A DNA stretch of 56,495 nucleotides, counting the filler, from Bipalium vagum (Eukaryota), in NCBI GenBank assembly GCA_037834085.1. It is 3 parts of 3 records of this genome, joined end to end, with 100 filler letters (N's around TTAATTAATTAA, not from the genome) between each part and the next. Parts side by side here need not be neighbours in the genome. Positions count along the whole stretch, not along the records: positions 39,195 to 56,495 come from JBBMKC010072237.1; 2 more parts are not named here. One strand, 5' to 3'. Every line of letters begins with the position of its first letter. Positions within the stretch are counted from its first letter, which is position 1. This document shows, piece after piece, positions 188-55,819 of this stretch. The notes under the pieces were generated by a model that saw only the letters and a program-made list of their open reading frames with translations, had not been told where the DNA came from and did not search any database. Position numbers and translations under genes: made by a program.

Positions 188-311
188 TATAGAAAAATAA
201 AACCTCTGTAATGTGCTTGTTATGTTAAATAAAAATTATAATATTCATGCATCTCTTTCTACGCTAGTCTCACTACTTATTGGCGCACCACGTATATAAT
301 GAAAAATAAAT

Positions 312-1018
312 TTGTTAATATTAATATTATTTCTCATCAAAGCCCGAAGCAACAACCTGGGCTTAAATTATAGAATCTTCAATCTCATAAAAAATAACAA
401 CATTGTATGCCGTAAATGTAATTCCCAACCAGAAACCCAGTCACACGTACTCAACCACTGCCCTGCCAGACCAATCATGCCAACAATTAAACATAATGCA
501 GTCCTGGCTGTTCTCTCTGATTATCACCGCAAAAATAGATTCAATGTCGAAACCGACACAGCCCTACCAGATGACAACATAAACCGCCAAATAAATAATC
601 TTATATATAATCATCCGCCAAAAAAAGTAAAGAACATACACATCCTGGACCTGATTATCCCATATGATGGGCCGAAGACTTTCGACAACAACCAAAGGGC
701 AAACAAAGAAAAGTATACGGCCCTCGCAGACAAATTAGCCCATGAAAACAGATCCTCCACACTACTCGATGTCATCAATGTGGGCTACCTAGGATCCTGG
801 GACCCAATGAACGAAATACCCCTCAAAAACCTGGGCCTGACGAAACCGCAAATCAAAGAATTGGCACAAAATCTCCAAATATCTGCAGTCCAGGAATCAT
901 ATCATATTTATCTAAACCACATCTCAAAACCAACCCCAACAACCAGACAAACCCAATGATGATTCCTGATGCACTGCCTTTATCTGTATTATACTAATTT
1001 ATTTTTATGGAAAAAAAA
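312..1018 (+). mobile_element. 5'-truncated REL-endonuclease non-LTR retrotransposon (NeSL/Utopia-like, R2 group): C-terminal zinc knuckle, REL domain and short 3' UTR
   Basis: ORF 312-959 has FLIKARSN, CCHC knuckle CRKCxxxPETQSHVLNHC, KHNAV (RHN-like), ILDLIIPYD, KEKY and VGYLGSWDPMNE. No RT domain. A-run at ~1011-1018. Confidence 0.85.
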
Positions 1019-3829: not shown

Positions 3830-6210
3830 TCCCGACTGTAATTTTTCCTCTTCTACGCCTCCTCATGTGCTAATTGTACATGTTTCGCATCTTGGTCTAG
3901 ATGACAAATCTGCTTTCGTATGTATCGAACCCTTCCTGTATTCGAACTTAATGTCAAGACTGTTCAAGTAATTAATCCACGTTTGGAATTGCGACGTGAT
4001 CGGCTTCTTCATACTCATCATGAAGGTGATTGCTTTTATGGTCCGTTCTTAATCTGAACCTTCTTTTTTATAAATAATACTGAAAGTGATTGCAAAAGTA
4101 ATAAATGGACAGCAATTCCTTTCGAGTAATACAGTAACAAATTTCATGGCAGCTCATGGCGTGAGAGTCGTATGCTATCACTCGTTCTTTTCCATTTTCG
4201 TCCGGTTGAGACATAACTGCTCCTATTGAATCAAAGCTCGCATCAGTATCTAGAATAAATTCCTTCTTAATATCGGGAAAACACAGTATGGGACTTGATG
4301 TTATTCCTTTTTTCATCTCCTTGAACGCTTCTTCCATCTCAAGTGTCCATATTAATTTTTTCTCACTCTTTCCACACGTTCTCGTCAAGGACCTAGATCT
4401 TTTCGAGTATTCCTTTATAAATCTTCTATAATAGTTACAGATCCCTACAAAGCTTCTCAATCCTTTTACACATTTCGGCCTTTCGAAATTTTTAATCGTC
4501 TCCAACTTTGAAGGGTCTGTCTTTACCCCTTTCTACTCACCACATGACCGAAAAAATATTTTTCCTCTTTCAGCAAATGACACTTTTCTGGATTTATCCT
4601 TAGTCCAGCTTCGCACACTCTTCTCAGTACTTCGTTCAGAACCTTATAATGCTCACTTTCAGTCCCCGTAAATATATGTCGTCCAGATAGATCGTTGCTC
4701 CTTTTATACCACCGACGACCTTCATCATTATCTCCTGAAATGTGCCTGGAGCTGCAGTTATTCCAAAGGGCATCCTATTAAAACAATATTGTCCTTCCTT
4801 GGTAGAAAAAGCCGTCTTGATCTTTGATGTCTCCTATAATTCCACTTGATAATATGCATTACCTAAATCAATAGAGCTGAAATACTTTGCCTCACCTAAG
4901 GCGTCCAACATTTCATCGACATTTGGCATCGGAAATGCCTGCCTTTCCGTGACTGCATTTAACTGCCGAAAATCCAAACATATACGGATATCTTTCTTCT
5001 CCTTCTTCCATACACAAATCAACGGTGTTCCAAGGTGAATGCATTTCTTAATAATTCCATTGTTGTATAGGTTCTTGAATGTCTCTTATCTCTTCTCCTC
5101 TAGGTTCATCGGTTGTCTAAACGGCTTAAGATTAATCGGTTCTCCCATTGTCCGGATATGGTGTTTCGCCGGTGAGTGCAGCCTATATCCCATTTGTTGG
5201 CCATGAAAACATCCTCGTTCTCTTTTATTATGTGCACCAGCCGCCTGTTGATCTTCATTCCTGTGAGCTCTAATGCTCTCTTAAAACGCTCCCCTTCCTT
5301 GACTTCATTACCAAATTTCTTTTCAATATTACACATATCAATCTTTTCTTTCCTTTCCATCAGTTTTGATCTGCCCGGAATTTTCTTTAACCAATCTAAA
5401 TCCGAATACCTTCTGGAGATTTATTCACATTAAATCTTGTGTGACTTCCTCTACTACTGTAAAGTTCAACAGTTTTGACTCATCTGCTACCCTCTCCAGA
5501 ATGGAGCATTTTCAATTGGCAATTGTTGGCACACCTTAATCTGTCATTACTTCTCACTACTTCCACGTCTTTAAGCTTTTTCAAAATTTTCTTACTCATT
5601 ACACTGACCCCAGCTCCCGTATCTAATAAGCATTCGAATATTTGTCCTTGAACCTCTACCATTATATTTGGTTTACCGTTCATCACTGTCTGTTATAAAG
5701 AAATCTCCTCCTTTAGTCACTGCTTCCATCTCCTCAGCATCATCAACATCGTTAAAGTCTTTCTTCATGAATTTCCACACTTTAGCTCACTCTTCTTCTT
5801 TGCACCGGGCACCCCTTTGGAAATCATCGTTGACGACGTTTAATAAAGGCTCCAACTAACTCCCCAACTAGCGGAGTCTTGTCTTTTGGGTACTGGTTTT
5901 GTTGTTCTTCGTATTCGAACTGTCTATCGACGTCTACTTCCTCTTCTAATGCATTTAAATTATTAATTCTCTATATTTTTTCTGATCCTCTGTGGTTGAA
6001 AACTCCTACCAACGTTAAGGTTCGTATAACATTCCCTTTCACTATACCCATTCCTGTTGCACCTCCTACACTTTATATTTGGACAAGCTCTCCTAATATG
6101 ACCCTCTCTCTGACATCCGAAACATACTTGAGGTTTCTTTTTAGGACAATCCCTGACCCTTGTCGTACAGTTTCGAGCTAAATGACCCTTCTTATTACAT
6201 CCGTAACATT
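3830..6210 (-). mobile_element. Ty3/Gypsy LTR retrotransposon gag-pol remnant (gag zinc knuckle, protease, RT, RNase H), disrupted
   Basis: In order on the minus strand: CYGCNKKGHLARNC (~6165-6208), LLDTGAGVS protease, IRICLDFRQLN...YFSSIDLGNAYYQV RT with RMPFG and IYLDDI segments, then LRSFVGICNYYRRFI...FILDTDAS...ELL RNase H. Several stops and frameshifts. Confidence 0.95.
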
Positions 6211-12329: not shown

Positions 12330-13265
12330 AAGGAACAATTTATTTAATCAAAAAACCACCTTCAGCATGTATACACTTCTGCCACCTTTTTGGCAGCTCG
12401 GATACGTTTTTATTAAAAAACTCAGGTTTCAGAGATTCGACGAACTGCATAAACACACTTTGGACAGCCTCGGTGAAATGGAATTTTTTCCTTGTAATAA
12501 GTTATCCAAATTCCTGAAAAAATAATAGTTGGTAGATCCAAGGTCTGGGGAATAAGGAGGTTGATCAACGATTTCCAAATTCATCTTCACTATTTTTAGT
12601 TTCATTCGCTTTGCAATGTGTGGGCGGGCATTGTCAAGAAGAAGTATTGGTGTATCTTTGTTGAACAACCTTGGTAGTTTTTCTAAAAGATTCTTTATCA
12701 TGTTTTCCAATGAAGTACAATAAACCTCAGTCGTGATTGATTGACCTTATCCATGAAGCTATGGTATATCAACCAACGACTTGTCCACCAATAGTTTCTT
12801 TTGATGAATTTTCGACTTCTGGCAATGCTTGGGAGATTCATTTGCATCTATACATTGTGTAGATCCCTTACGATTGTCTTATAAGATACCCTTTTCATCA
12901 CATGTAACAAAGCGATGCAAAAATAGATCATTCTTGTTCCGTGAGAGCAGAGAAAGACATGCATCAAAACGCCTGTTCACAGGGATTTCTGTTAATTCAT
13001 AAAAAGTCCAACAATCAAGTTTTTTTACTTTATTTATTTGCCGTAAATGGTCCAAAATGGTTGGAATTGAAACCTGGAAAATTTCTTTTAATTCTGTGCT
13101 AGATTGGGATGTGTTTCTTTCCACTGCAGCCTTCAATTCGTCATTTCTTACCTTGATTTCAGGTCTTCATCATGACAGATTAATTAGGTCAAAATCACCA
13201 AACGACTGATGGTGTTTTGGATGGGCGCACTATCACCAAAATCTCTTTCATGTTCCGGGCAGCTT
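12330..13265 (-). mobile_element. mariner (DD34D) element, disrupted
   Basis: FLHRFVTCDEKGIL, PILLLDNARPHIA and QPPYSPDLGSTNYYFFRNLDN in the ORF track. Confidence 0.93.
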
Positions 13266-13329: not shown

Positions 13330-14480
13330 TTCCCTATTTCGAATTTATGCTCATTATACCAACTTCTTAAAAATTTCGGGTTTTTCTGTTATAAAATAGT
13401 CTAAGCACTCTTTGACATTCTCAGTCGAATGAAATTATTTTTTGTCAAGATTATTATGACTCGATCGGAACAGATTGAAATCTGAATGATTTACTACTGT
13501 AAAGTACGATGAATAATGTATTGCTTCCCAACTGAGGCTCTTTAGTTTGTGTTTTGTAGCCAAAGCATTTTGTGGATTAAAATTGTCCTGGTGAATAACC
13601 ACATTATTTCTCTTCACTAATCTTGATTTTTTTAAGTTTCACATCCTTCAATTTTTCTACCTGATCACAATACATCTGCTCATTGATAATCTGACCACTT
13701 GGAAGCAACTCGTAATAATTAATATCTTTTCAATCCTACCAAATGCATAATATCATCTTCTTGGGCTGAAAATCTATCTTAGCAGTGGCTTACTAAGACG
13801 CACGTGGACTGCACCATGGCCACGCTTAATGTTGCTCTAGAAAACTCATTTTCATTACAATTATGATGCAGGGAACTTATTATTAATGGATCCAATCAAT
13901 TCAATTTTAATAAAACAAAACCTAAGTGCAATTAGAAACGTCCTAATCCAACAATTGTTGATGAACTAAAATATCCATCTTTTTGTCATCCAAATATTTT
14001 TAAATCGCTTCAAAACTGTGGAATATTTAATATCCAGGTTCTGTGCTATTTTTCGTATTAAGATATGCCGGTTTTCTTAAATTACGGTCAAGATTTTATC
14101 GTTATTGGTGACAGAACAACCATCTTGATACTATCCTGGAAAATAAATCCCAGAATATAAACGCGCACACCACCTCTGGTAGGAAATAGAGTTTATGACA
14201 ATCACCGTATACATTTCATATTTCAAGGCGTGCCTCTGCAACATTTATCTTTTTTAAATAAAAAAGTAAGAGCTTCTTTAGTATACTAAAATGCTGCTTC
14301 CGTTTGATTTTCTGTATTCATTTTAAAATTAAGAATATTTTTAAAAATTGTAAAATTAAATTACCGCCAAACAAATCTGAATATTATTTAATTGAATTTG
14401 GATTAATAATTATTTGAATAGAATTTGCATCTGACTTTACTAGTTGAAAATAATGCAGAACTTATTCGCAACCCAACATG
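13330..14480 (-). mobile_element. Second, older mariner element, disrupted
   Basis: KMILCIW*D and VIHQDN...LSWEAIH...SDFNLFRS; TIR-like TGTTGGGTTGCGAATAAGTTC at ~14458-14478. Confidence 0.8.
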
Positions 14481-16767: not shown

Positions 16768-17900
16768 TTGCCAAAAGTGACAACGTAAAGACAGAGAAAT
16801 TGTGAAAAAAATTAGTTCTGAATTTGTTCAAACTCTGGATAATCAATTATATTGCAAGATATGCAATACGGTTGTTTCTCATTCAAAAATGTTTTTCATG
16901 GAGAGTCACAGAAAATCTATTACACACAAAATTGGAATGAAGAATATAGTAGGTAATATAACGCAGATGTTCATAGAACATCCGAAAGATAACTATAAAA
17001 ATGATGTGGTTACTGCATTTGTCTCTGCAGACATACCATTGTGGAAATTGAGAAATCCACATATACGAAATCTTTTTCAAGGTATTGGGAAACCCTTAAC
17101 CAGTGAACAGTACTGTCGATCATTGGTTCCAGGAATGTATCAGGAAGAAATGACAAAAATGAATTCATTATTTGACGGTAAGAAGATATTTATGATTTTT
17201 GATGAAACCGATGTATCCGGCAATAGATACATAAACGTTCTTCTTGAATTATTGAATATTCCTAGTGAATCCTTTTTGGTCGATTGTGTACCATGGACAG
17301 CTCCACCGAATAGCCAAAGTGTAATTTATATTATCGATGATACAATGAAATGTATGGGAATTGGAAGAGATTATTTCTCACTCTTGCTCAGTGATGTAGC
17401 AAGATATATGACTTCGGCAAGTAAGACATTGCACGTATTGTACCCAAATCCTTTCCATGTCACTTGTATTGCTCACCTCATGCATAATTGTGTCATGAAA
17501 GCTCGAGCTTATTATGAAAATGTTGACAGTTTAATATCACGACTGAAATTAGCTACTATTAAAAACAAAGTAAGATTAAAAGATTTCATAAATATTGGAT
17601 ATCCGCCAGATACCATTGTCACACGATGAGGAAGCTGAATAAATGCAGCGTTATATTATTCTAAACATTTTCCTGAGGTTAAGAAATAGTAGAAAATTGG
17701 TCTGGGAATGGTTTTTTGGTAAAGCAAGCAGCAATGGCACTAGAATGCAAGAAATTAATGTCTTCATTAATTGAAATTCAGGAATGCTACAGTTCAATAT
17801 CTTTTTTAATTCAAAAGTTTGAAGGCAGACATTGATCTAATACTGAAACATGGGATTATCTTAATATGATTAACTTTTATAAGGATGTGTTTGCTATTAT
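16768..17900 (+). pseudogene. hAT-superfamily (CGGBP1/DUF4371-like) transposase pseudogene
   Basis: BED-like CKIC...H...H finger, IFDETD, LLSDVARYM, HVTCIAHLMHN (CxxH), then TR*GS*INAALYY, the RW motif with both Trp codons mutated to TGA; frameshifts beyond. Confidence 0.85.
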
Positions 17901-19439: not shown

Positions 19440-20952
19440 TATAAACATTTTAAAGTGTATTGTAAAACTCATATCTTCTCTGTTAAAATCTATTAATTCT
19501 TCATTATCATCAATTATTCTAAATTTAATTACAGAAATATTTTTTATTAATAAAGTATAATAAACTGAAAAATATGGTATTTAAATTATTTTATAACCTT
19601 TTAAAATAATATTAGATGAGAAATCAAAATAATATTTGTATTCCCTCCATTAAAAAATCCTCCTATAATATTACAATAAACCATAATTCTACTTAGATTT
19701 GAAATATTTACTTTTTTAGAATAATGTATTCCTTGTTTATAAAATTTATTAGTTTCAAATCCTAAAAGATTTTCTAATAAATCTTTCACAGAAACTGAAC
19801 GTTACAATCTTTTGATTAAACCATTTCATTAAACAATGTAAGTGAAAATGAATTTGATTTAATTTTATGTGATATTCTTTTTTTTAACGGTTATAAAGTT
19901 TTATCATATATAAACTCATTTTCAATAACCTATAATATTTCTTTAATTCCAAATGCTGCTGGAGTTATCAATTTTTTGTTATTGATTTATTTTTACTATC
20001 TATTACTTTTACAATTATTTTATTATTGTTATTATTAATATAAATATAGAACTATAAGTTGAAAAATAAACTAAAGCTAATTTGTAATTTAAATTAGGAT
20101 CAAGTTTTAAAGGAATTTTAAATTTAAAGGAAACATTTGATTCTTTTGTTACAATTATACTTAGACGTAATAACATTTGCTCGTGAACTCATAACCCCTC
20201 ACTTTTATAAAATGTTGTGTCCGTCTCTCTCAACCTTATCTAAAACAAAACACCTACAATAATACTGTATCCGCACCCTAAGAACTGAATCAAAACACCC
20301 TCAATAAAACTTTATTGACCAAAACACAATCACAATATCGATCACCTCTAGAAGTCTCTATAAAGCCCTATAAATAATAATAAAATAAACACACTACTAT
20401 TAATGAGATGAGAGAAAAAGAGAATCACAAAGAAAGAAGTTCTTGAAAAGTAACACCAGAAATCAGCACAAACAAAAATAATAAACGGACTCACCAAGAG
20501 CGACAAAGGGTCCCCAAGTAGCCATCTAGGCCCTTCTCATGTCGCCTATGGGTTCCCAAGCTCGCTGGGTCCCCTTGTGAAATCCTTCTGCGTCCACGGA
20601 AAATCTGATATACCTACGTCGTCGTCCTGAAATTCCGTAGCCTTTCTGTGTCGTTGTCCCCAAAAATTCGTAGCTCTTTTTGCGTTGTTAGCGTTTGTGG
20701 GAAAATTGATGGGAATAGCCGTCTTTTTATATAGTCGTAGGGATCGGGCTACGATCACCAATCCATACGCTCCGAGAAGCCTATCTCCATCAATAGCCTT
20801 TAATTACTTTCCCACAACGAGATAAGAAAGATTATTATCTCCCAAGATGAGGAGTAGTTAATTCTTCTGGGCTGATATTATCTTAGGGAGGATTTTTATC
20901 TCAGGTAAATTTTTAAATTACTTTTCGAGTGTTAATTAATTTTAATTATTAA

Positions 20953-21007
<55 letters not shown>

Positions 21008-21144
21008 GTTATTGTTATTATAAATATTACTATACCCCAACACTTTACTATTTACAATAAATAATTTTGAAATTTTTTTAGGAGTATCAACTATAATTTT
21101 TTAAAATAATTTTTTAAAATGATTTTCTATTAAGATTCTTCCAT
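19440..21144 (-). pseudogene. Polinton/Maverick (adintovirus-like) minor capsid (penton) gene, decayed and split by a solo LTR
   Basis: Reconstruction: MEE...IVDTPKKISKLFIVNSK|ESNVSFKFKIPLKLDPNLNYKLALVYFSTYSSIF..NN...ITPAAFGIKEI...LLGF...GIHYS..VNISNLSRIMVYCNIIGGFFNG...GYKII*IP...YY...I..IKFRIIDDNEELIDFNREDMSFTIHF. This follows the motif order of Polinton/adintovirus pentons. Confidence 0.8.
20147..21042 (-). mobile_element. Solo LTR copy A (896 bp, Gypsy-type)
   Basis: Minus strand starts TGTTGGGG and ends ATTGTAACA. Exact TSD CTTT at 20143-20146 and 21043-21046. Contains (AAT)n, TATATAA and AATAAA; homologous to 52144-53150. Confidence 0.92.
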
Positions 21145-27404: not shown

Positions 27405-28886
27405 TCACAACAAAAAAGGAAACCTCTTGTATCTCCTATACGATTTTTGTTTGGAGACTAAAACCCTTCGCATGAGCTCTTTCGCAGCGTTCTGCAGGAG
27501 CGGGAACAGGCGGGCTTTTTTACAAATATTTCTCAATTTCACTTGGTGCACAACTTTCTCCCTCTCAGCTATCTTGCCCCAGTTGCTCAGCATCGGATAA
27601 AGGAGAACTATTTGCTTTGCCGACCAAGCCAATTTTTTGATTTCGGGTTTGCAGGACAAATTGAATCCGTTCAGTTTTCCGAGGAAGATGTATTTGCATC
27701 TGAATACAATGTCCAAGGTGGTGAGCTTCATATAATCTTCACTTGTCTTTTCGGAATCTTCAATTCTCAATTTTGAATCCAATAGATACGACATTGAACG
27801 AAGTCCATGATTTACAAAGGTCGTCAGAAATTGCTCTACGGTCTTCTCAAAATCGACTCCTACATCGTCCCAGTCCCCTGTCTTTTCTAAACGGGCGTCC
27901 TCACAGCACCTGAAGAAGCAGGTTTCTTTTTTTATCCTATATGTACTTGAGCAGGCCGAACATACCCCCCTGGAACAGGACCGACAACAAGTTTTGCTTG
28001 TCAGTCTCAAATCTGTTTGACAAAGCTCACATTCGTTGGGCTGATGTTTAAAGACCTGTTGATACTGGTCTGAGCTGTACCTGTCAATGACTTGAATCAG
28101 AAAGGACTTGACTATTGTGAAGACCTCATCCAGCATCGTCATTCGTAAGTCGATTCTTTTGATTTGCTTTGAAGCTTCATTTAAAAATAAATCCGAGTCG
28201 ATCTCATTTAGAGAGTAAGAGAAACCCAAATCTTGAATTATCCATATTTGATCTGATATCTTTGACAAAACTTCGATCTGTTTAGATAATTCGTTAATGG
28301 AAAACGCTCTCAGAATCTCTTTCATTTTTGATCTAGTAGTCCCGTCCTGAATCTCAACACTATAATTAGACTTATAGTTTTTGAGTATCATGCGTCTGTC
28401 TTCCTTCAGTCTTATTTCATGAGACATGGATTCAAAAGATAGTTCTGAATTCTTGTCTTCCCAATCGTCAAACATCTCATATTCCATCCCGACCCTTGTC
28501 CATTTATGAAAGATGTTACACATGGCCGCCACATGCTCACTCAAAACTGATTTTGTTTTACTCCTGTAATGATCGCGAATCGTCAAGCAAATATTCAATT
28601 TCTTGATATCGTATTCGCCAATTGCAATGTTTTCTTCTTTTTTCTTACAAAGCTTGTAATGATCAATAAACTTTTCACAACTTTGGTGCCGAACCAAAGC
28701 CCCGTTGACACAGTAAGAAATGATGGTCACTATGGGCAATCTGTCAAATGGACACGTTTCATTGATCAATATCCACGACTTGATGCATTTGCAACAAAAC
28801 GAATGGCCACAACCTTCAATAGTTGCCGATTTTTTAAACACTGTCGTTTCAAAGCAAATGTTACATTCAATTCTCTCGTTTTTCAT
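27405..28886 (-). CDS. Intronless 493-aa RING-finger protein (putative E3 ubiquitin ligase) with a second degenerate RING-like domain
   Basis: Intact ATG-to-TGA ORF, visibly more GC-rich than its flanks. N-terminal CNIC-x14-CGHSFCCKC-x3-W-x6-CPFDR; second Cys cluster at aa 286-328. AATAAA immediately after the stop. Confidence 0.88.
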   Translation of the reverse strand: MKNERIECNICFETTVFKKSATIEGCGHSFCCKCIKSWILINETCPFDRLPIVTIISYCVNGALVRHQSCEKFIDHYKLCKKKEENIAIGEYDIKKLNICLTIRDHYRSKTKSVLSEHVAAMCNIFHKWTRVGMEYEMFDDWEDKNSELSFESMSHEIRLKEDRRMILKNYKSNYSVEIQDGTTRSKMKEILRAFSINELSKQIEVLSKISDQIWIIQDLGFSYSLNEIDSDLFLNEASKQIKRIDLRMTMLDEVFTIVKSFLIQVIDRYSSDQYQQVFKHQPNECELCQTDLRLTSKTCCRSCSRGVCSACSSTYRIKKETCFFRCCEDARLEKTGDWDDVGVDFEKTVEQFLTTFVNHGLRSMSYLLDSKLRIEDSEKTSEDYMKLTTLDIVFRCKYIFLGKLNGFNLSCKPEIKKLAWSAKQIVLLYPMLSNWGKIAEREKVVHQVKLRNICKKARLFPLLQNAAKELMRRVLVSKQKSYRRYKRFPFLL

Positions 28887-29109
28887 TGGCAGATTTGTGA
28901 TTAGTAATAATTTAAAGTTAAACTTGCGATATTCGTAATAAAATTAAATGATTTAAACAAATTTTGAAATTTTAAAAGATTAAAATTTCCTCATCACTTT
29001 TTTAAGAAAAAGCTCATAAAAATATGATCAAAATATTTTTTTAAAAAAATTTAAATAATAAAAACTTTATTAAAAAAATTATTAAAAATGTAATTAATAA
29101 AATAAAACA

Positions 29110-32013: not shown

Positions 32014-33358
32014 TGTGCTTTATTATGCTTTAATTAAATTTACTTACCTTTTGACTTTTGTCAATAACGTATTGAATCAAAACGACCACAATAAAACTTT
32101 TTTTACAACACAGATACACAATGATGATTACACAAGAAATCAATCTAATTAAATTAAATATATTCAATATTTAGTGTATCGACTTTAAACGAATTCCAGT
32201 TCTTAGGTGGTGCAAAATAGCAACAATCAGTAAAGCAATAATTATATTTATATCACAATGGCACACACAATATACAATAATAAAAAAATCGTCAAACTCA
32301 ATAAAGGAATCACTAAAAACAATAACGTCTCGAATATCTATAATATCTCGTAAAATATCTAAAATATCAGTCAACAAAATCAATCAATTAAAACAAAATA
32401 CTTATTAAATTTAACGATTAATTTAAAAAATGAATAAATTAAAACAAAAATTAAACTTAAATAATAATTATCAATTAATATTAATAATAAAGAACGTTAA
32501 AGAAAAATAATATAGAAAAACAAGATTTGTCTTACAGTTTAGCTTTGTTTAACCTTCTCGAACTACAGTTGTATCAGTTGAGCCTTTACAGTTTCTCAGA
32601 GATACTCCTCTTGTGGGAAATATAAACATAATCCTAAAGAAAAGGAAAATATTGTAAATATACTTGTGATAATTTGTGATAACGTGAAATCTGCTTTTTC
32701 AAAAAAATAATCTGCGCAATAATCAAATTTGGAATCTCCTTTTCGAACTGTAAATGATAAGCTTCCTAACAACTGTAATTAAAATGACTTTCTTGCCAGC
32801 TTTTAAGGTTGGAATTGTGAGGAAATGCTTCTCTTTATACAATGATTTTTAGCTAATCAGTTTGCAGACGAGCACCATCCAAATTCCCAAATATGCTCCT
32901 TGATGATCATTTTTGGGCTGCTAATTAATTCGTTTTTCAATTTTCTCATAAAACCTTCCCTTAATTACTCTTTAAAACTTTTCGGTTTGATTTTTAATGG
33001 GTTTTAATTAGGCTAAAAAAGGGAAAGGTTTTCAAGGACTTTTTGAGGAGTTAATTAAAATTTATTACCTCCTGAATTACTTAATTAAAAATTAATTTAT
33101 ATTTTAAAGGGGTGTTTTATGGGATATCGGATTTATTTAAGGGTTTGTTGGGGTGCCTTTGAGAAATCAATAAATCGTCCTAAATATACTGAAAATTAAA
33201 GCAATCGGTAATAGTCAAAGGAAATGATCAGATCAAGGTAAAGTATGGATCAATGGTAAATGATATAACGACGACCACTATTTAATATTAAATTATTCTA
33301 GACTTTTGAGGACTTATAATTCAAAGGTTAAAGCGATGTGCCCTCGGTTAACCCAATA
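32014..33358 (-). mobile_element. Older, diverged member of the same LTR family (copy D)
   Basis: GAATCAAAAC..CAATAAAACTTT..ACACA..CACAAT matches the U5-like part of copy A. The minus strand has TATAAAGAGAAGCATTTCCT, like TATAAAGAGACGGCTATTTCC. GGTTAACCCAATA at ~33346-33358 matches the reverse complement of the copy C start. No clean TSD. Confidence 0.6.
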
Positions 33359-52143: not shown

Positions 52144-53150
52144 TGTTGGGTTTTGAAGCATAATAATAATAATTTTTAAATAATAATAATAATTTTTTAA
52201 TTAATAATAATAAATATTTTTCGTTAAATTTTTTTTATTAACTTTTTTTTGATTACCAAATCCCGCCGTGAGAATTTTCGGCAGATTACGCTAATGGATG
52301 ATCTGACAGGATTCCATTAGCCTTGATATGAGTCTATCTCGGCATTGAGATAGAGTTAATGGCTATTAGGGAAAGTAGCCGTCTCTAAGCGTAGGGATAG
52401 GTGATCGTAGACCAATCTCTACGACCATATAAAGAGACGGCTATTTCCTTTAATGGCTCAGTGCTCAACAGAAGGGCCCAAAAAAGAGAAAAAGAAAAAA
52501 CGTTCATTCCACAGGATGATTAAGGACGACAGATCGCGACATTCAGGAGAACTTCAATCAGCAGGACGATTCAGGACGAAAGACCACACTATTCAGGGAA
52601 ACTCCAATTATCAAGAGGACTACGAGCCGAAGAAAGGAAATCGAGGTATTTTCAAGTGGATATGACTTCGCAGGAGGATTCTACAAGGAGACCCAGCGAG
52701 CTTGGGAACCCCTAGGTGACCTGAGAAGGACCTAGAGGGCGACCCGGGGACCCCTTGTCGCTCTTGGTGAGGCCGTTTTGTTTTACTCTTGACTCTTTCT
52801 TTTGTGATCATTTCTTTCTTCTCTTTTATTATAATAGTAACAGTATTTTTATTTATTTATTTATTTATCATTATTCTTGTTGACATTGTTATTTATAGAC
52901 TCATTGATTAAAGGGTGATTTAACGAAGTGAATTGTCGTTTCGGTCATTATTTTCCAGTGCGATTGTGTTTTGTTCAAATAAAGTTTTATTGTAGAAGTT
53001 TGATTCAGTTCTTAATGGTGCGGATACGGTATTGTGGTGGGTGTTTTAACTCGAAAAGGTTGAGAGGAGTTACGGACACAACGATTTATAAAAAGTGAGG
53101 AGTCACGAGCACACGAGCACACGTTACTACGTCTAAGTATAATAGTAAAA
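52144..53150 (+). mobile_element. Solo LTR copy B (1007 bp)
   Basis: Starts TGTTGGG, ends TATAATAGTAAAA (terminal CA mutated). Exact TSD AATC at 52140-52143 and 53151-53154. AAT-rich 5' tract, TATAAA at ~52428, AATAAA at ~52978. Confidence 0.92.
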
Positions 53151-53597
53151 AATCTGAAAAAAGGATATTCCGCAGTGATAAAATTATTTTTCTTCACAAT
53201 GAATCGAAATGGACACCAGGTTTGGAACAGATTAGTACCAATTGAATTAGATATCTTCCAGAGAATGTGTCATTAACCTGAAGTGAAAATCTGTTAGACC
53301 AATGTCCGAGAGTACACTGAGTACAAAAGGATTTGAAGGTCTAACAGTGTTTGCTTGAAGATTGAAGAAATATGTTGTGTTGTATTTTCGAGCAGAAGAT
53401 TGATTTTGTTGGGTTAACCAAAGGTACGAAATCCGATATTATAATAATAAATAATAATAATAATTAAAATCTTTTAAATAAAAAAATTTTTCTTTTAAAT
53501 TATTCCAAAAGTCATATATCAAAATCTCGCCCTCGGCTAATGGATTTTCATGACAGTCGTTTTCATATGTCCCATTGTGGGGATGGTAAGTTTCAAT

Positions 53598-53825
53598 TAC
53601 CGTAAAGTACCGGGGATAAACCGCACCATATGTATAAGGCGCACTCATGTTTAAAAATATATTTCATTTTTCTTTAGATAAGGCGCTTATCCAAGTATAA
53701 GGCGCACAACAAATATTTGTTTTAATATTTCATTTTAATGTAAAAAATGTGTTTAATTTAAAAAAATGCCTAAAACTAGACATTCATATAGTGCAGAACA
53801 TAAGCTGAAGGTGATTTTGTTTGAT
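53598..53825 (+). mobile_element. pogo/Tigger-type transposon 5' fragment inside LTR C
   Basis: TA-CCGTAAAGTACCGGGGATAAACCGCAC terminus, repeated TAAGGCGC subterminal motifs, and ATG at 53766 giving MPKTRHSYSAEHKLKVILF (Brinker-type DBD start). Confidence 0.75.
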
Positions 53826-54152
53826 CAAACTCTATCTCGGCGTGGAGATAGACTTTCATTAATGGCTATTAGGGAAAATATCCGTCTCTAAGCGTAGGGA
53901 TTGGTGATCGTAGACCAAATTCTATTGGTATATAAAGAGACGGTTATTCCCAGAAAAGGGCCGCAAAAAAAATAAAAGGAGTTTTATATTATCATTATTA
54001 GGTAGAAGAAGACTGTTATTGTATAGCAGAAGATTATTATTTCTTGGAAGTGTTATTGCCTAGAAGGATATTGTTAATTGAAATCGAAGAATATTTCCAA
54101 GGATCATTTCGCCAGAAAAAAATTCTGTATTTTTGTGTACGTTCGTTAATGA

Positions 54153-54736
54153 TAGTTATATTACTATTATACTTAGCTCGCAAAGTTTACTGACTCCTTC
54201 ACTTTTGTCAAAACTTGTACGTAAATGAATGAATCAAAACAACTAAAAACAACACTATTATCAAATTAACAATAACAAACACAATGTCCCAATATAATCA
54301 ATAAAAATGTCTTCAATCACAAAATAAAATTTTTTAATAGTCGATCACACTAAAAATCAAATTTCTTGAATAACGATCAATTAAATAATTAAATGTCAAT
54401 ATCAATTAAAAAGAAAAACAAAATAACGATATCCTCATTTTGTCGACGACAGATCCAAAGGGTGGTTTGCTGAGCTCAATCCAATTCGTTCAGATAGCAC
54501 AGGACCCGTCGTAAGCTCCTGTCGCATAGAGGGCATAAATGGCTGTTTACTAAGTGCAGCTTTGTCCTTGATCGTAAATTTCTTCTGACACTTCTCGGAG
54601 AATTTTATGACAATCCACTGTGGATTCCAACTTTTTAAATACTATTCTGGTTAGACGACTAACCAGTCTTTTTTTGCGGTCTTTAACAAAAATTTTTACA
54701 AAGGTTAACGGGGATATATCCTTGGCTAAGCCAACA
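54153..54736 (-). mobile_element. Short related LTR (copy E) nested in opposite orientation within LTR C
   Basis: Minus strand starts TGTTGGC (54736) and ends CTAAGTATAATAGTAATATAACTA; ATGA flanks both sides (54149-54152, 54737-54740). Confidence 0.65.
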
Positions 54737-55819
54737 ATGATGACATCTCAGAAGGATTATACAAGGGTCCCAGCGAGTTTGGGAATCCCTAGGTAACCTG
54801 TAAAGGATCTAGAGAACCCTCCGGAGACCCCTTGTCGCTCAAAAAGAGACTATTTTCGATTTCTTTTTATTTTTTGTGTTCTTAATTTTAAATATTCTTT
54901 TGAACTTCATTACATTAAATATTATTTTAAATCATAAGTTATTTTAACTTGCACTTGTGTTAAATTGATTTTCAGACAGTTCAGTAGTTTTTACTTTGAT
55001 TCTTGAGTTGATTGTGATTTTTGGTGATTAGTGTGAGTAGTTCAGTTTTGCATTATAATAAAGTTTTACTGTGATTTGTTTTGATTCAACTGGGATGCGG
55101 ATAAAGTATTATTGTGGGAGTTTTGATTCAAAATGAGTTTAACTTTGTGTTAAGTGAGGAGTTAATGATTAACGAGTGAAAATTACTTTGATAGGGTATA
55201 ATAGTAACAGTTTTGCGTCGAATGATGGTTGTTGTAGATCTTGTTTTAATCTTTTTTTTAAAGATTAAAGTTTTTTTTCCTTAATAACTGTTTCCTTCGA
55301 TTTCGCGAGTTCATGGTACACGAAACTTCATTATCTTCAAACTTTCTTTTAGCTGAATTTGTCTTCAAATCGAAGTCGACTGATTTTAATTAGGTAAATC
55401 AGAATTTGCAACTTGACAACGATGGAACCCCATCATCATGTTTCCTCAACCATTTGATGTATCTTTGCAACTGATATTTCCCATATCAAATAATAACATT
55501 AATATATGTCCCAAGTTTAATTTTGACCTATTCATTTATTGCGCCGTCTAAAAATGTTTATTTAAACAAACAATATTCCTAAATCCATATAAACATTTAA
55601 TATTTAAAATAAATTTTTATTTTGAGTTTATTACAAATAAAAATAATTTTGTTGGTTATTTCAATTTTAGACCAGATTTACCGCATTCTCTAATAAATAT
55701 TTAAACAAAGTAAAATATTTCATTAATAAATAACATTAATCTTTGATATACTCTCTTCCATTATTTATAACCTCAAGTAACTTTGACATTCTGCTTACAA
55801 AAATGACTTTTTTTGATTA

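Follow-up and report, generated by a model that had tools for sequence, protein, structure and literature searches.

A sharply bounded, conserved 89-nt unit with a predicted stem-loop in an LTR family of Bipalium vagum

In long terminal repeats (LTRs) with a long R region, the conservation that remains in R has been linked to stem-loops (PMC3601003, PMC2664473). Stem-loops of the R region or LTR in MLV, HML4 and HTLV-1 act in RNA processing (PMC2664473; PMC7551171), and in foamy viruses the 5' poly(A) site is suppressed, by way of U1, by a splice donor in R (PMC3694450). The unit described here, from Bipalium vagum, resembles the retroviral R stem-loops (MLV R, HML4, HTLV-1 RxRE and HIV-1 TAR) in being a conserved, predicted stem-loop between the TATA box and the poly(A) site, in an apparently long R and with diverging surroundings (PMC2664473, PMC3601003, PMC7551171). 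It differs from them in showing no sequence or Rfam likeness and in lying 120–220 nt inside the inferred R region instead of at its 5' end. Moreover, because the unit is placed upstream of AATAAA, it cannot, unlike the HML4 and RxRE loops, span the distance from poly(A) signal to cut site. In two copies it resembles the foamy virus system in having a donor-like site that lies in R, upstream of the poly(A) signal and beside RNA predicted to be structured (PMC3694450); the site is missing in the third copy (C), and the predicted fold is unchanged when U3 is attached.

Two further systems are comparable in part. The 5' dimerisation palindromes and pseudoknots of Ty3 and Ty1 likewise involve hairpins that are G+C-rich, contain self-complementary stretches and lie towards the 5' end of the RNA of an LTR retrotransposon; the Ty3 dimer site, however, lies in GAG and not in R (PMC11381356), and no palindrome is conserved across our copies A, B and C. 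Retrozyme LTRs, which are ~350 bp long, contain hammerhead ribozymes and are flanked by 4-bp target-site duplications (PMC6765202); they also combine structured RNA in LTRs with 4-bp duplications, whereas no hammerhead core is present here and the LTRs measure ~900–1000 bp. Export of Cer1 is described as protein-dependent (PMC10309623), and no terms denoting a cis element for it were found in the passages covered. No description of the unit was found in a limited search of the open literature by listings and abstracts.

The LTR copies and their setting

The window, i.e. the whole stretch of DNA analysed (56,495 nt with filler, composed of three parts of three records of assembly GCA_037834085.1), is eukaryotic and rich in A+T; besides remnants of transposons it carries a single long ORF that is intact, a RING-finger gene. 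The window contains three copies of one LTR family:

52144..53150, plus strand: solo LTR copy B, with the 5' end TGTTGGG and an exact 4-bp target-site duplication
20147..21042, minus strand: solo LTR copy A, with TG...CA ends and an exact 4-bp target-site duplication
53407..55209, plus strand: LTR copy C, interrupted or recombined, with a flanking duplication matching at 3/4 bases

All three copies start with TGTTGGG, and each has a TATA-like box and AATAAA followed by a downstream G/T-rich stretch. LTRs of animal Metaviridae are characterised by TGTTRNR as their 5' and YNYAACA as their 3' terminal motif (PMC3601003). The former was found in 3/3 copies; the latter is exact in copy A, with one mismatch in C and one to two in B. 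The target-site duplications fit a Ty3/gypsy-type LTR (exactly 4 bp in A and B, 3/4 in C). The ends, AATAAA and the G/T-rich stretch fit the motifs of animal Metaviridae (Ty3/gypsy-type) LTRs (PMC3601003), the clade being assigned from LTR features alone because no internal region is attached to any copy: none of the ORF, Pfam and profile searches of the window turned up an internal region, or an ORF, belonging to the family beside any of the three. The same result weighs against the view that the unit is a translation element, namely a structured 5' leader that promotes or tunes gag-pol initiation. The location of the unit, which would lie 120–220 nt into a long 5' leader, agrees with such a role, but no IRES family was matched in Rfam either, and we consider it quite unlikely.

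In copy C the promoter half extends up to ~53970 and is followed by unrelated DNA up to ~54735 and then by the 3' half. In A and B the unit has TATAAA upstream and AATAAA downstream of it, whereas C has a sole TATAAA, 830 nt upstream and on the far side of ~770 nt of unrelated DNA. This copy is broken by two stretches without likeness to A and B (53530–53800 and 53970–54735), the first of which contains repeated TATAAGGCGC words and resembles a small inserted element.

The transcription signals of copy B are as follows:

52428..52462, plus strand: TATAAA (52428) and initiator-like TCAGT (52458), with a putative start at ~52460
52978..53010, plus strand: AATAAA (52978) and then a G/T-rich stretch, found in 3/3 copies

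From the sequence we infer that transcription starts at ~52460, and that the R region of copy B is ~540 nt long with the unit 220 nt inside it.

Transposon remnants were detected at 303–959 (+), 4068–5420 (−), 12429–12746 (−) and 16781–17629 (+); they include, according to Pfam, an RT/RNase H fragment and a DDE_3 fragment, and the other two resemble (by eye only) the endonuclease end of a non-LTR element and a DNA-transposon protein. No LTR of the present family lies near the RT/RNase H fragment (4068–4532). A remnant at 32070–32700 (−), LTR-like but distant, has in common the poly(A)-signal motif (E 3e-4) as well as the succession of a purine-rich and a T-rich part; in it short words recur that resemble those of the unit's loop, but the unit itself is missing. 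Further TGTTGGG words occur at 14478 (−), 33146 (+) and 38516 (+), where profile search found no LTR copies. The RING-finger gene (27405–28943, minus strand) is an intronless frame of 512 codons that has its RING finger at the N-terminus and a cysteine-rich segment further on; its relatives match little past the RING domain, and none is full-length.

Extent and conservation of the unit

The unit was located in each of the three LTR copies (positions are numbered with 52683 as 1):

52683..52771, plus strand: conserved 89-nt unit of copy B, consisting of the 76-nt block noted first and a 13-nt 3' tail
20490..20578, minus strand: conserved unit of copy A, found by alignment and covariance-model search
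54761..54848, plus strand: conserved unit of copy C (88 nt, without the donor-like site), found by alignment and covariance-model search

An earlier reading of the sequence alone had described a 76-nt block aligning without gaps between copies A (20503–20578, minus strand) and B (52683–52758). This alignment was confirmed (66/76 positions identical, 10/76 different), with one gap needed for copy C, and the end of the block was extended, since conservation continues for 13 nt on its 3' side, to 52771. Across the three copies 62 of the 89 unit positions are invariant, compared with 49/89 in the best other window, this three-way comparison being limited to windows 3' of the unit. The neighbouring LTR sequence had been described as much more diverged, which is true of the immediate flanks (B versus A identity 0.26–0.66 upstream and 0.49–0.58 downstream, compared with 0.87 in the block) but not of the poly(A)/U5 end (0.79–0.84) or the promoter (0.79). 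Between A and B the block is the best 76-nt window (0.87), the 20/931 windows that score as high all overlapping it. Between B and C its identity is 0.82, and 126/931 windows are equal or higher, with the best (0.92) in the promoter.

In a genome-wide contig set from sequencing run X1, 3036 contigs with at least 80% likeness were placed on 52630–53150. Their summed depth, which is not copy number and reflects likeness to copy B (repeats at 52832–52876 were skipped, and X1 is possibly the window's own source), amounted to 45.6k–68.4k over the unit (52684–52773); the bins on either side of it had 11.4k and 8.6k, and the poly(A) signal 8–13k. Only the unit and the LTR 3' end form peaks, and the latter (50–70k) is covered as well as the unit. 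Loose contig ends cluster at 52684 (32 ends) and 52771 (53 ends). Runs X2 and X3 yielded 32 and 2 contigs, respectively, small shares that were too few for use. Despite the limits of their depth, the X1 contigs fix the bounds of the unit at ~52683–52771. The unit is a real, sharply bounded conserved element.

Profile and covariance-model searches of the window returned only the three training copies, the next match (E 0.022) being a U3 hairpin of copy B. Exact-pattern scans for more copies gave 0 matches in viral contigs, 0 in metagenomes and 0 in prokaryote genomes. A shorter pattern picked out 12 metagenome loci; all 12 match the pattern alone, within unrelated G+C-rich flanks, and were rejected as chance.

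Predicted fold and pattern of substitutions

The following elements were predicted in the unit of copy B:

52709..52739, plus strand: apical stem-loop P3 (positions 27–57), with two small bulges, a GNRA tetraloop (52723–52726) and the both-sided pairs 27:57 and 35:48
52692..52706, plus strand: hairpin P2, drawn in the rod fold as two helix strands that flank an 8-nt bulge; 14/15 positions invariant in the three copies
52683..52758, plus strand: closing stem P1 (52683–52690 with 52751–52758), predicted for the isolated block and weak in longer context

The isolated 76-nt block gave folding z-scores of −2.79 in B (0/200 shuffles as good), −2.28 in A (5/200) and −1.67 in C (13/200), and of only −0.5 to −1.6 with 20-nt flanks. 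In an 80-nt scan the antisense strand folds equally well (in B, z −3.1 versus −2.3). The minimum-energy fold of B is a rod ending in the bulged stem 27–57, with the cap CCU-GAGA-AGG, and in this copy folds of different topology lie within 0.5 kcal/mol. The P3 loop is GAGA in B, GUAA in C and GAAA in 22% of the X1 depth, all of which are GNRA, and the variants at position 43 keep it so; the inner 3-bp stem of P3 contains a mismatch in copy A. The predicted pairing depends on context: the probability of P3 is 0.00 in the longer context of A and 0.05–0.93 in B, according to the pairing span, and that of the P2 hairpin is 0.95–1.0 in A and 0.02–0.23 in B. The closing stem ACAAGG/CCTTGT, as originally drawn, includes one G-U in copy A and is weak in context (0.00–0.03 in A and B).

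The multibranch topology proposed in the sequence-only reading was not favoured: the original, rod and pseudoknot models did about equally well on the three copies, their scores being reached by 58, 66 and 67 shuffles of 500, respectively; covariation was not significant for any of them in this test (58–67/500), with two both-sided pairs each. For the lower half of the fold, this modelling leaves the multibranch drawing not supported over rival folds. The stem containing a GA bulge (28:57, 29:56, 30:55) was rejected as the family fold in favour of 27:57: its probability is 0.00–0.01 in all three copies, two of its pairs break in C, and the register preferred in B is 27:57, with one A bulged. 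The 30:55 pair and the GA-bulge register fit copy A only.

The double substitutions between A and B at positions 30/55 and 35/48, on which the idea of compensation had been founded, are indeed present. Among the X1 variant rows listed (59 more are unlisted), the variable positions within 1–76 are 7, 27, 35, 43, 48, 57, 58 and 65. When these listed positions are compared with the fold of B, which was computed beforehand, (i) 35/48 and 27/57 are both-sided, (ii) 65 is one-sided, and (iii) 7, 43 and 58 are unpaired; random placement equals this fit with P 0.009–0.017, compared with 0.13–0.17 for the fold drawn first. Variant shares are similar within pairs (0.57/0.42 and 0.18/0.23) in the X1 table, which carries no linkage between positions; linkage is seen directly for 35+48 in copy A and for 27+57 in copy C. 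If the register is 27:57, and not otherwise, the variant at 58 would provide an additional pair. Each compensation may represent a single ancestral event, because copy C carries the variants at 27, 43 and 57 together, and there may be only two or three independent compensation events.

As C>T and G>A account for 47 of the 75 variant places in X1, paired transitions arise easily, and the apparent compensation might consist of two or three coincident subfamily-marking transitions in a DNA-level element (downstream promoter or enhancer sites, short palindromes) or in a slow-evolving G+C-rich patch. Such an explanation would also suit the z-scores that vanish with flanks, the equal folding of the antisense strand, and the distant LTR-like copy (~32070–32700), which has similar short purine words and no unit; it is at odds with the match between the variable positions and a fold predicted beforehand, with loop changes that stay GNRA and with one-sided changes that give G-U on the sense strand only, and we regard it as unlikely. 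CpG decay was rejected as a driver of the variation, since the observed/expected CpG ratio of the window (0.92) indicates that it is not a strong factor.

U3 of all three LTRs contains a long inverted repeat predicted to form another hairpin, a bulge of which holds the TATA box (52362–52457, plus strand, in B; 20705–20794, minus strand, in A; 53877–53948, plus strand, in the 5' half of C). Between copies it has 2 both-sided pairs of 37, and covarying stems are therefore not unique to the unit. The U3 windows of B fold at z ~−4 on both strands.

Taken as a claim of selected RNA structure, the original proposal is supported for the apical stem on the sense strand (two both-sided pairs, GNRA loops and G-U-tolerant changes) and not for the multibranch drawing. 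We consider the RNA stem itself probable.

Inclusion of the 3' tail brings in a different model, in which positions 13–17 pair with 76–80 and stack on a 3-bp P2 beside P1, so that the unit would form a new compact pseudoknotted RNA, self-cleaving or nuclease-blocking. All five of these loop-tail pairs are invariant in 3/3 copies, and a helix without variation therefore offers no covariation support. RNAalifold picks the loop-tail helix once the tail is included; its nested probability in context is 0.00–0.07, the tail has three other predicted partners, and a match of this length arises in 110/2000 shuffles. Many formally unpaired bases are invariant and the 5' edge of conservation is sharp, and hammerheads in retrozyme LTRs provide a precedent (PMC6765202), but no known catalytic core was found on either strand. 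On this modelling a new pseudoknotted class is very unlikely. It is just as improbable that the sharp 5' edge is a cut or stop site and the loop-tail helix the core, as that model would have it.

The suggestion that the unit acts as a ribozyme-like fold found nothing in its support, with no Rfam ribozyme family and no known core; the accompanying observation that it matches no known ribozyme consensus or Rfam family was borne out, with 0 Rfam matches at gathering in the window. Around copies A, B and C no Rfam ribozyme family was found at E≤10. In motif scans for hammerhead, HDV-like, twister and tRNA features, run without a positive control, the CUGANGA of the hammerhead core (CUGANGA and GAAA) and an HDV-like nested double pseudoknot (our own descriptor) were each found in 0/6 strand-copy pairs. 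Twister was sought by its L4 word with both pseudoknot partners; an L4-like word lies on the antisense strand of A and of B and on the sense strand of C, hence on no one strand in all three, and Rfam gave no twister match. Likenesses to the hairpin ribozyme, pistol, hatchet and group II domain V were dropped, as core bases of the consensus are missing. Weak Rfam matches (FTHFS, U4, mir-7386, rli43, MIR398, ZNRD1-AS1_1 and H19_3) with E of 0.25–8.2, far below gathering, were also set aside. There is no T-loop motif and no Rfam tRNA match that would indicate a tRNA or tRNA-derived repeat. ENE triple-helix elements have U-rich internal loops (PMC12501189), and this type was excluded, the longest U run being 2–3 in all three units. 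If it were self-cleaving, the unit would be a new ribozyme class, and no evidence here points there.

A candidate processing element beside a donor-like site

One further feature lies at the 3' edge of the unit:

52766..52772, plus strand: splice-donor-like G/GTGAG, identified in the sequence by its likeness to the donor consensus

Given that likeness, this G/GTGAG may be a 5' splice donor. From the TATA box to AATAAA no other GTRAG occurs in A or in B (we estimate that one per 550 nt would be expected by chance at this composition), and GTGAG lies 211 nt (B) and 178 nt (A) upstream of AATAAA. It is present in 2/3 copies, being not at that place in C. In A and B the stretch before it is purine-rich (0.60–0.64) and the stretch after it T-rich. 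Attaching U3 does not alter the predicted unpaired probability at the donor-like site, at any of three spans in A or B, and GT..AG ends were found in none of the 15 listed of 17 DNA joints in X1 contigs. Upstream of the unit, a purine-rich stretch in B (52470–52660; shorter in A) contains repeated TTCAGGA and GGACGA words, which in our view resemble splicing-enhancer words.

Because the donor-like site adjoins the unit, and because foamy virus, MLV, HML4 and HTLV-1 provide precedents, we tentatively favour the possibility that the unit is a protein-binding R-region element for the processing of the element's own transcript. The sense transcript of the LTR, from ~52460, would carry the 89-nt unit, which would fold in the cell into a bulged, GNRA-capped stem-loop. 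This stem-loop would bind a protein and so govern processing of the element's own RNA, and the invariant unpaired bases (13–18, 25–26, 37, 54 and 68) may form a protein or tertiary contact. The adjacent G/GTGAG would serve as a 5' splice site; splicing from it, or binding of U1 to it, would block cutting of the 5' LTR transcript at AATAAA ~200 nt downstream; alternatively, it may help the nuclear exit of full-length RNA.

With the unit in R, each end of the genomic RNA would carry a copy of it, which would also suit a replication module, i.e. a hairpin for genome dimerisation, packaging or minus-strand transfer like the 5' palindromes in Ty3, Ty1 and HIV-1. In Ty3 the dimer forms through a G+C-rich palindrome of 6 nt that is set in a short hairpin (PMC11381356). 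The short palindrome to which attention had been drawn (such as CCCGGG) is perfect in B and C but absent from A, and hence not kept in all three copies; the corresponding duplex energy is −4.0 kcal/mol in A versus −14.7 and −14.5 kcal/mol. The stretch 13–20 can pair imperfectly with itself, with a duplex energy of −6.6 kcal/mol in both A and B, but the value drops to −2.1 in C. Homodimer gain, calculated without a shuffle control, is −10 to −14 kcal/mol. An R element upstream of the donor would be on every transcript and would therefore presumably select poorly. Altogether, a replication module seems rather unlikely.

R-region structures are well studied in vertebrate retroviruses, and none was found described for this kind of LTR in the literature searched. 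The family is high-copy, its module has sharp bounds and compensation is visible, which makes the case a tractable one, with many natural variants on which covariation could be analysed and an RNA of 89 nt that lends itself to direct probing. From it one would learn how the 5' poly(A) signal is silenced in a retrotransposon whose R is unusually long.
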